From the UHGV virus genome UHGV-0144897: 10,204 nucleotides of DNA; one strand, 5' to 3'. The stretch is from a virus. Below are positions 2,670-6,721 of the stretch, one piece after another (the first letter of the stretch is position 1; the number at the start of each line of letters is the position of its first letter). Both the position numbers and the translations under genes were made by a program. The notes under the pieces were generated by a model. The model had not been told where the DNA came from, ran no database searches, and saw only the letters and a list, made by a program, of their open reading frames with translations.

Positions 2670-3212
2670 TCACATAACCCCCAGCATCGATGTAACCATT
2701 GTCATCAGCGGCCCCACCTGCTCCGGCATGAGGCGGAACAGCGACGCTATACCCTCGCTTACCTCTTTCAGCTTCTGATGCTCCGGAGCGTCCAGCAGCA
2801 CGGCCTGCTTTGCTTCGGCACACTCTTTCATCGCAGAGGCGATCAGCGACATCGTGTCGTTCTGCGGTGCCAGGCGGTTGCGAAATTCCAGTGGAAGTAC
2901 CGCCATGATTGCGGGCGTCAGCTGGCGCACATTCTCGCGGTACTGCTCTGAGTCGAAGCGGTTATCTAGGAAGCGAAAAAGTTTCTGGCGCGCCCTGCTG
3001 ATGTCTTCCGGGAAGCTGATGGCGGTCCCGCCCTGCTCCCGGTATTCGTTGATGATCAGCGCCGAAACGACGTCCTGATTGTCCAGCGCCGATGACCATG
3101 CACGGACCGCATCGCGGATCTTTTCGTGGCCTGGCGCCGCTTTAGGTTGAGCGCGGTTTATCATTGCTCCCGGGTGTATTCCGGTATTGTGTTGATACGC
3201 AAGTGAATGCAT
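2670..3212 (-). CDS. cII-slot regulatory protein (180 aa), family uncertain (possibly the larger CII-like/YdaT-like type)
   Basis: ORF-track 2670..3212. ATG 3212..3210 with AAGGGA RBS, 30 nt downstream of the Cro-like stop. The position between cro-like and O-like genes matches lambda cII, but the protein is about twice as long and not recognisably lambda CII. Confidence 0.6.
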   Translation of the reverse strand: MHSLAYQHNTGIHPGAMINRAQPKAAPGHEKIRDAVRAWSSALDNQDVVSALIINEYREQGGTAISFPEDISRARQKLFRFLDNRFDSEQYRENVRQLTPAIMAVLPLEFRNRLAPQNDTMSLIASAMKECAEAKQAVLLDAPEHQKLKEVSEGIASLFRLMPEQVGPLMTMVTSMLGVM

Positions 3213-3241: not shown

Positions 3242-3469
3242 TTAAGCGGCTTTTGGTTTACTGATTTCAAGAATCTGGTTTTCGGTAAACTGACCACCAG
3301 ATGCAGCTGCGATTTTGGACGCATAGCCTGTTTCGCCTGTGTAGTCGGTGCGCGGTAGGCAACCGCTATTAATCCACTTGTAAATAGCGCGGGGAGTGCG
3401 CCCGCAAGCCTTCGCCACCACCGGTACACGGATTTGTTTGATGATGTCGCCAAGGTTTTTAGGTTGCAT
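3242..3469 (-). CDS. Cro-like / YdaS-like HTH DNA-binding protein (75 aa)
   Basis: ORF-track 3242..3469. ATG 3469..3467 with GAGGG RBS. HTH-like VVAKACGRTPRAIYKWINSG. Divergent from the cI-like repressor across an operator-rich region. Confidence 0.75.
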   Translation of the reverse strand: MQPKNLGDIIKQIRVPVVAKACGRTPRAIYKWINSGCLPRTDYTGETGYASKIAAASGGQFTENQILEISKPKAA

Positions 3470-3485: not shown

Positions 3486-3559
3486 TTGAACTGTAAGTAC
3501 ATATTATGTCGGAACTGATAGTTCACGCAAGTGATATTATGATTGAACCTATGGTTCAA
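3486..3559. promoter_or_regulatory. OR-like control region: three TGAAC/GTTCA-type operator dyads with divergent PR-like and PRM-like promoters
   Basis: Site A TTGAACTGTAAGTACAT (3486..3502); site B GAACT-GAT-AGTTC (3512..3524); site C TTGAACC-TAT-GGTTCAA (3543..3559). Minus-strand promoter: -35 TTGCGT (3530..3525), 16-bp spacer containing site B, -10 CATAAT (3508..3503). Plus-strand candidate: -35 CTGATA (3515..3520), -10 TATGAT (3538..3543). Site A recurs near-identically in the pL-like region. Confidence 0.45.
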
Positions 3560-4261
3560 GAAGAAAAAGCGCGTACAGAGTTTTCCCAACGGCTAGCGCT
3601 GGCCTGTGATAAAGCTGGTTTACCTGCTCATGGTCGTCAGGCTGAAATTGCAAAGCGAATGAAGCTAACACCAAAAGCAGTAAGCAAGTGGTTCAATGGG
3701 GAGGCTATTCCAAGACGTGGCAAGCTGCAGGAACTGGCGGCTATAATTGGCACATCCTCGTCTTACCTATTAGGCGATAGTGCAGCAGATGGCATATCTG
3801 AAGGGCATATGGCAATGAGGGACGATTCTTTCCGTGTAGACGTTTTTGATATTCAAGCTAGCGCTGGGCAAGGAATTCTTGTGCGAGATGAGTTCATTGA
3901 AACAATCAGATCCATAGAGTATTCAACCGAAGAGGCTCGCGCCGTATTTGGTGGGCGCCCAGCTGACCACATAAAAATGATTGCCGTGAATGGCGATTCT
4001 ATGTCTGGCACGTTCGAGCCGAGAGACCAGATCTTCGTCGACGTGAGCATCGACTGCTTTGACGGTGACGGCATATACATTTTCGTTCTGGACAATGATC
4101 TCTACATAAAGCGCCTTCAAAAGCAGCACAAAAAATTAGCTGTGATTTCAGACAACAAAAAATATGAGACCTGGTATATCGAGGATGGTGATTTTTCATC
4201 TCTTCGGATCTGCGCGAAGGTCTTGGTAAGCCAATCTAGAGCATATAGATTTCATAGCTGA
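3506..4261 (+). CDS. cI-like prophage repressor (N-terminal HTH, C-terminal S24/LexA-type autopeptidase)
   Basis: ORF-track 251 aa. HTH GRQAEIAKRMKLTPKAVSKWFNGEAIP resembles the lambda cI recognition region. S24 motifs AVNGDSMSG (Ser) and LYIKRL (Lys). No SD before any candidate ATG (3506, 3539, 3551); start may be leaderless at 3551, inside dyad C. Confidence 0.9.
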   Translation: MSELIVHASDIMIEPMVQEEKARTEFSQRLALACDKAGLPAHGRQAEIAKRMKLTPKAVSKWFNGEAIPRRGKLQELAAIIGTSSSYLLGDSAADGISEGHMAMRDDSFRVDVFDIQASAGQGILVRDEFIETIRSIEYSTEEARAVFGGRPADHIKMIAVNGDSMSGTFEPRDQIFVDVSIDCFDGDGIYIFVLDNDLYIKRLQKQHKKLAVISDNKKYETWYIEDGDFSSLRICAKVLVSQSRAYRFHS

Positions 4262-4272
4262 GGAAGTTAAGC

Positions 4273-4860
4273 ATGGAAGCAATTAAGGTTACAGATCTTA
4301 GTGATGGAAGCGGTTTGTACGAGCTTGGCGACCACTTCATCACCTGCAAATTAAGCCACGATAAACGTTGGCAACTAGGTGCTTTCAAACGTGATGAAAG
4401 CAAGCTCAGAGATGACACACTGGCGGTTTTGAAGAATGAAAAATTCATGTTTATGGTTAAGCTCGGCGGACAGCTTTCTCCCAAGCCTCAATGCATAGCT
4501 GTTAACGGGCGATTTTTATTTTCTGTCCATACCGGCAAAGACAACAACATGGCTGCAGCCATAGTCATGGATAACACCGGGAAAGAGTTATTCAAGATAG
4601 AAACTTCCACTCACCTCATCAGTTCGGCCATATCTGAATTTGGGCGCTACATCGCCCTATCGTTTGCCGGTAGCAAAAACAAAGATGATTTTTACGCGCA
4701 CCGGCTTGAGGTCATAAACATTGATACCGGAGAGGTGTTGATGTCCGTTATCAAAACAGACTTCCTTCGATACGCTGAGCTTTCAGTTGTTGAGCCAGAC
4801 GGCGGACTTTTCGCAACTTTTAATGGTCGCACAAGGCTTGTTGATGTGACGAACCTCTAA
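4273..4860 (+). CDS. hypothetical protein (195 aa) translationally linked to the repressor; rexAB-slot moron, candidate exclusion/defence gene
   Basis: ORF-track 4273..4860. GAGGAAG RBS 6 nt upstream of the ATG; starts 12 nt after the cI-like TGA. No Walker, HTH or TM segment recognised. First 60 nt are about 45% GC. Confidence 0.8.
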   Translation: MEAIKVTDLSDGSGLYELGDHFITCKLSHDKRWQLGAFKRDESKLRDDTLAVLKNEKFMFMVKLGGQLSPKPQCIAVNGRFLFSVHTGKDNNMAAAIVMDNTGKELFKIETSTHLISSAISEFGRYIALSFAGSKNKDDFYAHRLEVINIDTGEVLMSVIKTDFLRYAELSVVEPDGGLFATFNGRTRLVDVTNL

Positions 4861-4923: not shown

Positions 4924-5012
4924 AAAGTTCATAAAGTTAATCGTATATGAACTTTCCATTCACAAACAATGTACTTTTGGTACTTTACATGAATGAACTA
5001 TTGGTACATTAT
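4924..5012 (+). promoter_or_regulatory. pL/OL-like region: operator-like dyads and candidate leftward early promoter
   Basis: Inverted repeat AAAGTTCATA (4924..4933) / TATGAACTTT (4946..4955). TGAACT-N4-GTACAT at 4994..5009 matches OR site A (3487..3502). Candidate -35 TTTACA (4984..4989) and -10 CATTAT (5007..5012), 17-bp spacer. GTAC-containing repeats TTGGTAC at 4977 and 5001. Confidence 0.35.
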
Positions 5013-5230
5013 CAATCCATCGAAACGAAACATCGACAGCTGAGCGAAGTTAGCCAGCGGCGGAGTGGAGTTAGATGACCGCTTAGAGCCGCCACTTGAA
5101 TTTCAGCAGGTGACGGGGAGCGCGAAGGGTGAAGCGGACGTGAGAGCGTTGGCGTGACCAGCTGGAACTAAAGGTTTACCAGCAGCTCTTTGCGAGGGGC
5201 TGACGGTAAACAAACAGAGAGGTGGAAATC

Positions 5231-5419
5231 ATGCTTGGGTGTGAAAAGTGCGACCACGGATTCGTGTTCACCAGATGCTGTTCTGGTCTTGCTGAAATGT
5301 GTGGATGCGGCGGAATGCCGGTTCAGGCCACTAATTGCAAGAACTGCAATCCAGAGAATAAAGAGCCGGATGACGCGGAGACAGAATCGCTTCTCCAGTA
5401 TGTCGAATGGGTCGATTGA
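5231..5419 (+). CDS. small Cys-rich protein (62 aa), putative zinc-binding; first gene of early-left operon
   Basis: Part of ORF-track 5222..5419 (GTG start). ATG 5231 has AGAGAGG 8 nt upstream. MLGCEKCDHGFVFTRCCSGLAEMCGCGGMPVQATNCKNCNPENKEPDDAETESLLQYVEWVD has 9 Cys in CxxC/CC/CxC arrangements and an acidic C-terminus. Confidence 0.6.
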   Translation: MLGCEKCDHGFVFTRCCSGLAEMCGCGGMPVQATNCKNCNPENKEPDDAETESLLQYVEWVD

Positions 5420-5431
5420 TCAGCATTTCTC

Positions 5432-5448
5432 CCGCATCAGCGGGTAAC
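5432..5448 (+). repeat. 17-nt intergenic hairpin element CCGCATCAGCGGGTAAC, copy 1
   Basis: Stem CCCGC (5431..5435) / GCGGG (5440..5444), loop ATCA. Ends exactly 16 nt before the ATG at 5465. Identical 17-mer at 5654..5670. Confidence 0.6.
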
Positions 5449-5464
5449 TAAGTGGAGAGTACGT

Positions 5465-5653
5465 ATGCACAAGTGTCAATTCTGTGGGTACTTTCTGGCA
5501 TCTGAAGAGATGCAGAGAATATCTGTAAACATGGTTGGCAGGCCTTACAACATCTGCATTCCATGCTCAGAAAAGTACAAAAAGAAAGGCCTGTGGGATT
5601 CGGCAAAAAACGATATCGACTGGAAAGCACTTCCATGCGTCGATGAGACATAA
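5465..5653 (+). CDS. small zinc-ribbon-like protein (62 aa)
   Basis: ORF-track 5465..5653. GGAGAG RBS. CQFCG...CIPC (two CxxC pairs) plus one further Cys. Confidence 0.6.
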   Translation: MHKCQFCGYFLASEEMQRISVNMVGRPYNICIPCSEKYKKKGLWDSAKNDIDWKALPCVDET

Positions 5654-5670
5654 CCGCATCAGCGGGTAAC
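5654..5670 (+). repeat. 17-nt intergenic hairpin element CCGCATCAGCGGGTAAC, copy 2
   Basis: Begins right after the TAA stop (5651..5653). Ends exactly 16 nt before the ATG at 5687. Identical to copy 1 at 5432..5448. Confidence 0.6.
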
Positions 5671-5686
5671 GACAGAGGAAAATTTC

Positions 5687-5905
5687 ATGTCTTACATCAC
5701 CGAAAACATCCACCTACTTTCAAACTTCAACGCTGATCCGGCAACTATCGCGAATATGAAATCGCTGGTATTGCCCTGGGCAAAGAAGCGCTTGAGTGAG
5801 TATCAAGAGCTATACGCATTGTGCCCTGAAGCGATATTCAGCGACGAAGTTGAAACGCTAAAAGCTGGCATCGCAGTTTGCGAACAAAGATTACAAGCCG
5901 CCTAA
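5687..5905 (+). CDS. hypothetical protein (72 aa)
   Basis: ORF-track 5687..5905. AGAGGAA RBS. The stop codon lies in the loop of the downstream terminator hairpin. Confidence 0.6.
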   Translation: MSYITENIHLLSNFNADPATIANMKSLVLPWAKKRLSEYQELYALCPEAIFSDEVETLKAGIAVCEQRLQAA

Positions 5906-5921
5906 CCAGCGGCTTTTTTAT
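5895..5921 (+). terminator. rho-independent terminator inside the early-left operon
   Basis: Stem AAGCCGC (5895..5901) / GCGGCTT (5909..5915), 7-nt loop containing the TAA stop of the 72-aa gene, followed by TTTTAT. Confidence 0.55.
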
Positions 5922-5947
5922 CGGCCACATAAAACAGGAGGATCGGT

Positions 5948-6586
5948 ATGGGCTCGGCAGCTACCGACATCATTCTTGAGAGCAAGAGAAGCCGAAAGAA
6001 AAATAAGGGGCCTGTCCACGGAGTTGGGATTATTGATGTTCCATTCAGTGTGCGCGGAACAGTAGATGGGAAAAAGATATACCACCGAGCCTTTAAGGTT
6101 TGGAACAGCATTTTGCAGCGATGCTATTACCCACCTATTCAAGCCAAGTATCCATCATACATAGGCTGCTCTGTTTCCCCTGAATGGCTGCTCTTCTCTG
6201 GTTTCCTTAAGTGGTGGAAAGCGAATTTTCATGAGGGCTGGGAAATCGATAAAGACCTCCTATTTCCTGGCAACAAGATCTACTCACCAGATAAATGCCT
6301 TTTCGTTCCATGCGATCTGAATAGTTTTGTAATCAGCCGAGAAGCAAAGCGCGGACCTTCTCCTATCGGAAGTACGTTTGATGCTCGTTATGGCGTTTAT
6401 AGGACAACTATCAGTCTTGGGAAAGGCCAAAAGCATTACTTGGGGTCGTTCGTTTGTCCAGACGAGGCATACACCGCCTGGCTCAGTGCAAAGTTGAAGC
6501 TTGCTGAGCGATTCAAACCAATCTGCGACGAGATACACCCTCAACTTTACGACAGCCTACTCACGAAAATTCGCTCGATTAAATGA
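5948..6586 (+). CDS. free-standing endonuclease-like protein with a C-terminal AP2-type DNA-binding domain (HNH/homing-endonuclease-associated type), 212 aa
   Basis: ORF-track 5948..6586. AGGAGG RBS 6 nt upstream. C-terminus ARYGVYRTTISLGKGQKHYLGSFVCPDEAYTAWLSAKLKLAE fits the AP2 signature (YxGV...GK...LGxF...EA..A). N-terminal W-x6-RC...Y-x-Y-x-G...W-x-x-F...F pattern recalls phage HNH-associated proteins. Family is recognition only. Confidence 0.75.
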   Translation: MGSAATDIILESKRSRKKNKGPVHGVGIIDVPFSVRGTVDGKKIYHRAFKVWNSILQRCYYPPIQAKYPSYIGCSVSPEWLLFSGFLKWWKANFHEGWEIDKDLLFPGNKIYSPDKCLFVPCDLNSFVISREAKRGPSPIGSTFDARYGVYRTTISLGKGQKHYLGSFVCPDEAYTAWLSAKLKLAERFKPICDEIHPQLYDSLLTKIRSIK

Positions 6587-6721
6587 ATTGCTAAACCGAC
6601 ACATGTGGTCGGCTTCGTTATGACAACTGGCGGCCATCCACCGCCCATTGAAACACTGAATAAATGCGTTGAAGTCTTGTATTAACCGTTCCGTTCGCCG
6701 CGATAAGGCCAAGAGGAAATC

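Follow-up and report, generated by a model that had tools for sequence, protein, structure and literature searches.

The 10,204-nucleotide (nt) stretch of UHGV virus genome UHGV-0144897 analysed here (the window) is best explained as part of a mosaic lambdoid prophage with no gene for an N protein, namely its immunity and early-left region, in which three short open reading frames (ORF1, ORF2 and ORF3) downstream of the early-left promoter pL are independent accessory cassettes, stacked by recombination in the slot that is occupied by the N gene in phage phi80. For this explanation as a whole we estimate a probability of about 0.6. The task of the missing N protein is more likely performed by the leader RNA that precedes the three genes. 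An earlier note on this DNA had drawn attention to the three ORFs as the head of the operon where an N-like antiterminator would be expected, and had proposed that two of them encode zinc-binding mini-proteins and that all three are candidate host-takeover or anti-defence factors. Its observation stands, apart from one Cys count, and so does part of its interpretation, i.e., that the ORFs are real, that two of the proteins very probably bind zinc and that none is an Arg-rich N protein; the implied three-gene unit filling in for N does not. The proteins are more ordinary than was proposed, being three independently mobile small genes of which two are probable zinc proteins. The more interesting result is a conserved, structured leader RNA, termed element B, which is mutually exclusive with N, lies in the slot of the put RNA of other phages and, judging from its sequence, is a candidate protein-independent antiterminator.

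The coordinates and sizes of the three ORFs (62, 62 and 72 amino acids (aa), all on the plus strand; Table 1) had been given correctly, as had their position as the first genes downstream of a pL-like region, in which the promoter itself is now located. Shine-Dalgarno-like motifs are present 7–9 nt upstream of ORF1, ORF2 and ORF3 (GAGGTGG, GGAG and AGAGGA, respectively). In a large protein database the three families comprise 4, 8 and 11 clusters, with identities of 66–97% and lengths that are all equal. The ratio of nonsynonymous to synonymous substitution rates (dN/dS, calculated according to Nei-Gojobori against DNA homologues) is 0.05–0.19 for pairs with unsaturated dS and more than a few substitutions, including a value of 0.15 for ORF1 in comparison with locus L005. 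For the most divergent pairs dS reaches saturation, with dN values of 0.2–0.44. ORF1, ORF2 and ORF3 are real genes under purifying selection. The idea that they are chance open frames within a long leader, which might be prompted by their very short length and by two of the three having no family of known function, is already refuted by this substitution pattern and retains a negligible probability; the ribosome-binding motifs upstream of all three, the conservation of lengths and Cys residues among homologues and the recurrence of homologues in unrelated genomic contexts speak against it as well. Searches of Pfam, NCBIfam and PADLOC with the three proteins revealed nothing significant, PDB sequence profiles gave only noise, and all relatives among 50,697 phage records are labelled hypothetical.

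The three genes are not a unit, since each of them occurs elsewhere alone or in different combinations. The trio itself was found nowhere else: the 1090-nt head of the operon has no match with at least 80% coverage in 5,426 E. coli genomes or in the 50,697 phage records. Occupation of the N position is to be taken literally, because the 27-nt linker J1 that precedes ORF2 and ORF3 also stands before phi80 N, and the conserved segment J2 matches phi80 DNA from just past the terminator tL1A. In phi80, J1 lies directly 5′ of N (locus L006, 3308–3334), and the mosaic maps place J1 at the left edge and J2 at the right edge of the ORF2 and ORF3 cassettes. With its CCCGCAUCAGCGGG hairpin, J1 comes before whichever gene fills the slot, phi80 N, ORF2 or ORF3, and it is present in two copies in L067; it may serve as a recombination boundary or as a common translation or processing signal. 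The contents between J1 and J2 comprise phi80 N alone (phi80), ORF2 directly followed by phi80 N (L201–203, L210, L211 and L003), gp40, J1 and ORF2 (HK225 type), ORF2 alone (L133), or ORF3 with its terminator alone (L134, L004 and L231–237). Sequence identities at the level of single cassettes are high: ORF2 and its flanks are 98–99.6% identical in HK225, L003 and L133, ORF3 and the terminator move jointly, in a cassette that is 94–96% identical in L004 and L134, and ORF1 and its flanks are 97.7% identical in L005, where ORF1 is preceded by N (PF25694) and by a gene encoding 198 aa, and is followed next by J1. Compared with the early-left head of phi80 (pL, nutL, N, tL1A), the first 49 nt of the transcript and the 27-nt pre-gene sequence are identical, and the region past the terminator is 97–98% identical. 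In contrast, the window carries ORF1–3 in the slot instead of N, an additional HNH gene after the terminator, and element B plus a hairpin, C, in place of the nutL boxA/core segment. The early-left head is built of swappable modules, consisting of a promoter, a common 5′ leader, an antitermination device, a linker, gene cassettes and a terminator.

In agreement with the earlier note, no Arg-rich N-type protein is found among the three ORFs. A tblastn search with eight N-position queries (the N proteins of lambda, P22, phi21, L005, L227 and phi80, together with Nun and HK225 gp40) gave no match in the window, nor did Pfam show an N_peptide (PF25694) match there. ORF1, ORF2 and ORF3 contain 4, 9 and 6 Arg plus Lys residues, respectively, without an Arg cluster. 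Homology to cIII or Kil, which had been named as a finding that would make the ORFs known housekeeping proteins, is likewise not seen, with no Lambda_CIII or Lambda_Kil Pfam match to ORF1–3 at E-values up to 1.

None of the three proteins is a substitute for N, because relatives of ORF1 and ORF2 adjoin bona fide N genes and ORF3 is located behind varied leaders, of the nut type, the put type and other types. The alternative, in which one small protein, most plausibly ORF2 or ORF3, would be a new antiterminator without an Arg-rich motif that replaces N in conjunction with the leader RNA, draws on the occupation of the phi80 N slot and on the lack of an obvious Arg-rich motif in phi80 N itself. 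It also finds some support in L133, where phi80 N is missing and the leader ahead of ORF2 shares 95% identity with the nutL leader of phi80, and in L134 and L004, where ORF3 is likewise found behind phi80-like leaders (99% and partial identity, respectively). However, ORF2 occurs together with phi80 N in L201–203, L211 and L003, and with both put and phi80 N in L210. An Arg-rich (ARM-type) N accompanies it in 19 of 19 more distant loci, among them mEp213, in which the ORF2 relative begins 4 nt past N. ORF3 is present behind put-type leaders, which require no protein (L236, L233 and L234), and its comparison with phi80 N by hhalign gave nothing; the other hhalign comparisons, with the DnaJ Cys-rich (CR) region, P2 Ogr and YdaE, were negative as well. 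ORF1 is downstream of N in L005, and its distant relatives are also found downstream of ARM-type N (L227/L228 and L238, the latter a Tatumella terrea prophage). Finally, phages of the 4A7 type possess element B but lack ORF1, ORF2 and ORF3 altogether. A protein antiterminator among ORF1–3 is thus very improbable.

The same loci permit a separate observation on phi80 N. This protein is absent behind leaders that are 95–99% identical (L133, L134) or partly similar (L004) to the phi80 nutL leader, and present behind the put-type leader of L210. As phi80 N and nutL-type leaders occur separately, and as an Arg-rich motif is not obvious in this protein, its connection with the annotated nutL is open to doubt.

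Antitermination is needed in the operon, because the HNH, exonuclease and later genes lie past the terminator at 5895–5923, which is strong and the first in the operon. ORF1, ORF2 and ORF3 are located upstream of this terminator, and would therefore be produced at once on infection or induction, i.e., as soon as pL fires and independently of any antitermination.

The leader that precedes ORF1 (5016–5224, ~210 nt) lies outside the coordinates covered by the earlier note. Three conserved RNA modules make it up: J0, then element B, then hairpin C. J0 precedes nut-type (phi80, HK225, L133), put-type (HK639, L210, L236) and B-type (window, L067, L105) leaders, and being common to all of these it would have a shared function that is unrelated to the kind of antitermination used. 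A 126-nt segment of HK639 is annotated as 'putL-like antiterminator RNA', and its 3′ part shares 98% identity with hairpin C. The order of modules in HK639 is J0, put core and C, and in the window and L067 it is J0, B and C, with the same flanks. L210 contains a cI gene 100% identical to that of the window, yet has the HK639 put core where the window has B. Element B and put are therefore positional alternatives, each filling the same place between J0 and C.

Element B is not restricted to this setting. In 4A7/Perceval-type phages, the leaders of which are otherwise unrelated, a stretch of the pL leader shares ~85% identity with it; in their pL operon the annotated genes lead straight to kil, with no N. 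The 4A7-type phages contain B without hairpin C and without N, and have terminators inside the pL operon. Two pattern scans of IMG/VR identified B in at least 128 viral contigs. A relative of N, Nun or phi80 N is encoded at 0 of the 72 B loci with adequate flanks, versus 28 of 46 control loci without B. For 20 distinct B sequences RNAalifold predicts two adjacent hairpins with a total of 22 pairs, in which 98.6% of the cells are paired, as compared to 25–39% when the partners are slid, and four of the pairs are changed on both sides. A coding function of B, with one frame open in all three of its subtypes, was considered and rejected: the 4A7-type phages have no start codon there and, upon inspection of the sequences, the compensatory RNA changes are seen to alter amino acids.

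At L105, a B locus that fails the flank criterion, a 28-codon remnant of an ARM-type N is situated between B and hairpin C (10733–10816). It shares 89% identity with the N-terminal part of L005 N and looks like a decaying N gene.

According to the mechanism that we propose, the pL transcript would run through J0, B and C, then through the three short genes and up to the terminator, and element B would act in cis to let the polymerase pass the terminator and reach the HNH, exonuclease and recombination genes. Element B would then be a functional analogue, not a detectable homologue, of the put RNA of HK022 and HK639. HK022 putL and putR and the HK639 putL-like RNA are cis-acting RNAs that bind the zinc-binding domain of the RNA polymerase β′ subunit (PMC9378689). 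The likeness lies in an N-less lambdoid early operon and an RNA of ~70–100 nt soon after pL, with two adjacent imperfect stem-loops that in the case of B are predicted; element B begins about 60 nt past pL, in the HK639 put slot of a phage without N. In contrast to put, element B does not contain the put core (stem I CGAACGGC...GUCGG; stem II ...CAAU...), and the window has no second, putR-like copy.

Tentatively, and at somewhat less than even odds, element B may be regarded as the founder of a second put-like RNA class, unrelated to put in sequence, which alone makes RNA polymerase terminator-resistant. Such a class would be used by a large N-less lambdoid group of Enterobacteriaceae, including 4A7 (Bievrevirus) and the LF82 prophage Perceval, and its members would be modules that can be swapped with put between identical flanks. 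Several results have to be set against this assignment. Rfam gives no match in the window (E-values up to 1) or in the HK022, HK639, 4A7 and phi80 loci (E-values up to 0.1), and apparently contains no put family. A put covariance model (R1), built from five put sequences and recovering each of them at 56–101 bits, finds no match at B when applied to 5016–5224 without filters and at E-values up to 10. The covariation in B comes from essentially three subtypes, so that the independent covariation events are few, and in two of three cases the minimum free energy of B alone is no better than that of shuffled sequences (z = −0.04 for the window and +0.76 for 4A7). An alternative long-range pairing, of UUUCAGCAGG with CCAGCUGAAA, is possible. 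Each phage has one copy of B, with none in the pR operon, and no homology links B to RNA polymerase. Furthermore, the boxA-like motif in hairpin C makes a route via Nus factors possible.

The weak folding energy and the lack of sequence or covariance-model similarity to put also fit a different explanation, in which B is not an antiterminator but a leader element with a role in mRNA stability, processing or translation control or as a small RNA, while read-through is leaky or proceeds via the boxA-like hairpin C and host Nus factors. The GCTCTTTG sequence of hairpin C resembles the boxA of rrn operons, and J0, being common to nut, put and B leaders, points to leader parts with functions unrelated to antitermination. 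This explanation is on balance unlikely, as B exactly replaces put between J0 and C, is strictly anti-correlated with N genes (0/72 vs 28/46), and in the 4A7-type phages is present without hairpin C or N in an operon that nevertheless contains terminators. To our knowledge, put is at present the only family of protein-independent phage antiterminator RNAs that is understood structurally. If element B is indeed a put-like antiterminator, a second RNA family would permit a direct comparison of how RNA alone reprograms RNA polymerase.

The protein encoded by ORF1 contains eight Cys residues, arranged as C4xxC7, C16C17, C24xC26 and C36xxC39, instead of the nine that had been counted before. In a full hidden Markov model scan with the ORF1 profile the family grows to about 20 clusters, and in the 21-sequence alignment 8 of 8 Cys residues are invariant at a mean column identity of 27%. 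This Cys pattern is far beyond chance, and ORF1 (CxxC-x8-CC-x6-CxC-x9-CxxC) is probably a zinc mini-protein with two Cys4 sites. ORF2 has five Cys residues, which include the two CxxC pairs that had been noticed in one of the small ORFs (C4/C7 and C31/C34). These pairs are conserved: C31/C34 is invariant, and C4/C7 is retained by 8 of 8 homologues that cover the N-terminus, a ninth one being N-terminally truncated. The CxxC-x23-CxxC spacing fits a zinc-ribbon-like protein. Of the proposal of two zinc-binding mini-proteins, the part that is borne out directly is the presence of conserved Cys pairs with knuckle spacing in ORF1 and ORF2; zinc itself is very probable from this pattern. Some caution is called for by the AlphaFold2 model of ORF1, which is of moderate confidence (predicted local distance difference test score, pLDDT, 77; 46 when calculated from a 5-sequence alignment), and a structure search with this model, including BFVD, gave no match to a characterised fold. 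ORF3 has two Cys residues and no Cys motif.

ORF1 weakly matches PHROG 28167 (1.6e-7) and ORF2 matches PHROG 19863 over its full length (7.9e-44), both being families without known function; ORF3 has no PHROG family. The 50,697 phage records contain a single distant relative of ORF1, in a Yersinia phage (54% identity); ORF2 is found there in HK225 (gp39), mEp213 (where it resembles gp50) and Louie, and ORF3 is not found at all. The four Cys pairs within ~36 residues of ORF1 are reminiscent of the DnaJ Cys-rich region and anti-TRAP, which suggests two interleaved Cys4 sites, but identification with a DnaJ CR module was rejected (hhalign 0.8%, no CxxCxGxG repeats, other genomic context). Similarly, ORF2 is comparable to the zinc fingers of Ogr/Delta (CxxC-x22-CxxxxC in Ogr), but a P2 Ogr type was rejected at an hhalign probability of 2.8% and in view of the different genomic context, and a relationship to Rac YdaE at a probability of 0.4%. 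A hit annotated as 'ECs_2282 family zinc-binding protein' (H15) was discarded, as it belongs to an unrelated insert, in which it lies on the opposite strand.

In L227, a distant AT-rich lambdoid phage, and also in L228, an ORF1-like gene (53%; 3632–3820 in L227) and an ORF2-like gene (68%; 4001–4189) lie ~190 nt apart downstream of N. This pairing could reflect a functional link or merely a common slot.

By their length of 50–75 aa, transcription from pL, patchy distribution, non-essential appearance and, in several cases, richness in Cys, the three proteins resemble lambda Ral, cIII, Kil and Ea8.5 and Rac YdaE, but they have no detectable homology to these small accessory proteins. ORF1 and ORF2 would be small metal-stabilised proteins and ORF3 a small protein acting with some partner; most likely they bind a host or phage target, such as a macromolecule, right after pL fires, and none of them would be the antiterminator. 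Two conserved families of probable zinc mini-proteins and one orphan family are herewith added to the immediate-early accessory genes of lambdoid phages. A more specific role in anti-defence, in which the proteins would be made first to disarm host immunity, accords with their promoter-proximal position ahead of the first terminator and with their rare, patchy and cassette-like distribution. The sole, weak contextual hint in this direction is a relative of ORF1 (77% identity) which in a non-lambdoid phage is located three genes from an Acb2/Tad1-hairpin gene. We nevertheless consider such a role rather improbable. ORF1–3 show no similarity to anything characterised in Pfam, NCBIfam, PADLOC, PHROG, PDB or BFVD, and the small early-left proteins of lambdoid phages serve many other roles, including cIII, Kil, Gam and Ral-type functions. 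The ORF1 relative just mentioned belongs to the early region of L132 (2764–5186), in which it adjoins RdgC/FtsK-gamma and DUF3310 genes; the Acb2/Tad1 gene is anti-CBASS/Thoeris-like.

The features of the window are listed in Table 1. The cI and Cro proteins visibly resemble their HK022 counterparts and, because an HK022-type pL/OL sequence lies downstream of the HK022-like cI gene, the plus strand corresponds to the 'leftward' early operon. The promoter is located within a 370-nt gap between the 195-aa ORF and the three small ORFs, and is flanked by TTGGTAC operator repeats (4974–4986 and 4998–5010, repeat family D1).

Table 1. Features of the window, in order of position.
Feature	Position	Strand	Description
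DnaC/IstB-like loader	858–1730	minus	
Replication O protein	1715–2611	minus	
YdaT-domain gene	2670–3212	minus	cII position
Cro-like gene	3242–3469	minus	
cI-type repressor	3506–4261	plus	HK022-like; Pfam Peptidase_S24 (2.4e-18) and HTH_3
195-aa ORF	4273–4860	plus	straight after cI, rexAB position
pL promoter	4984–5012	plus	TTTACA-N17-CATTAT, from promoter scan; near-identical to HK022 pL/OL
J0	5016–5064	plus	first 49 nt of pL transcript; 98–100% identical in most loci compared, 96% in HK639
Element B	5074–5171	plus	candidate cis-acting antiterminator; two adjacent imperfect hairpins predicted (about 5080–5124 and 5125–5163)
Hairpin C	5174–5211	plus	GUUUACC...GGUAAAC; boxA-like GCTCTTTG at 5185–5192
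ORF1	5231–5419	plus	62 aa
J1 linker	5422–5448	plus	AGCATTTCTCCCGCATCAGCGGGTAAC, 27 nt, 5-bp GC hairpin; repeat D4; shorter 25-nt copy at 5654–5678
ORF2	5465–5653	plus	62 aa
ORF3	5687–5905	plus	72 aa
Intrinsic terminator	5895–5923	plus	7–8 bp stem with 5 GC pairs, then TTTTTTAT; overlaps ORF3 stop
HNH-endonuclease-like gene	5948–6586	plus	PHROG 953 (3.8e-72); no Pfam match
J2	6610–6700	plus	conserved right boundary of slot; matches phi80 DNA just 3′ of tL1A

The gene in the cII position contains a YdaT_toxin domain (7.9e-28) instead of a Phage_CII domain. The 195-aa ORF that follows cI has no match in Pfam, PHROG, NCBIfam or PADLOC, and is possibly a lysogen-expressed exclusion or defence gene. 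The HNH-like gene is situated between the terminator and J2, and looks like a homing-type insertion, because none of the related loci compared in the mosaic maps has it at this position. Beyond it, the plus strand encodes a DUF1482 protein, an RNase T/ExoX-type exonuclease and further early genes. J2 itself contains a conserved mini-ORF with an ATG start (MTTGGHPPP..., 21 codons in the window), which overlaps a GGCGG...CCGCC hairpin (6620–6685); in the 4A7-type phages this mini-ORF/hairpin sequence comes directly after element B.

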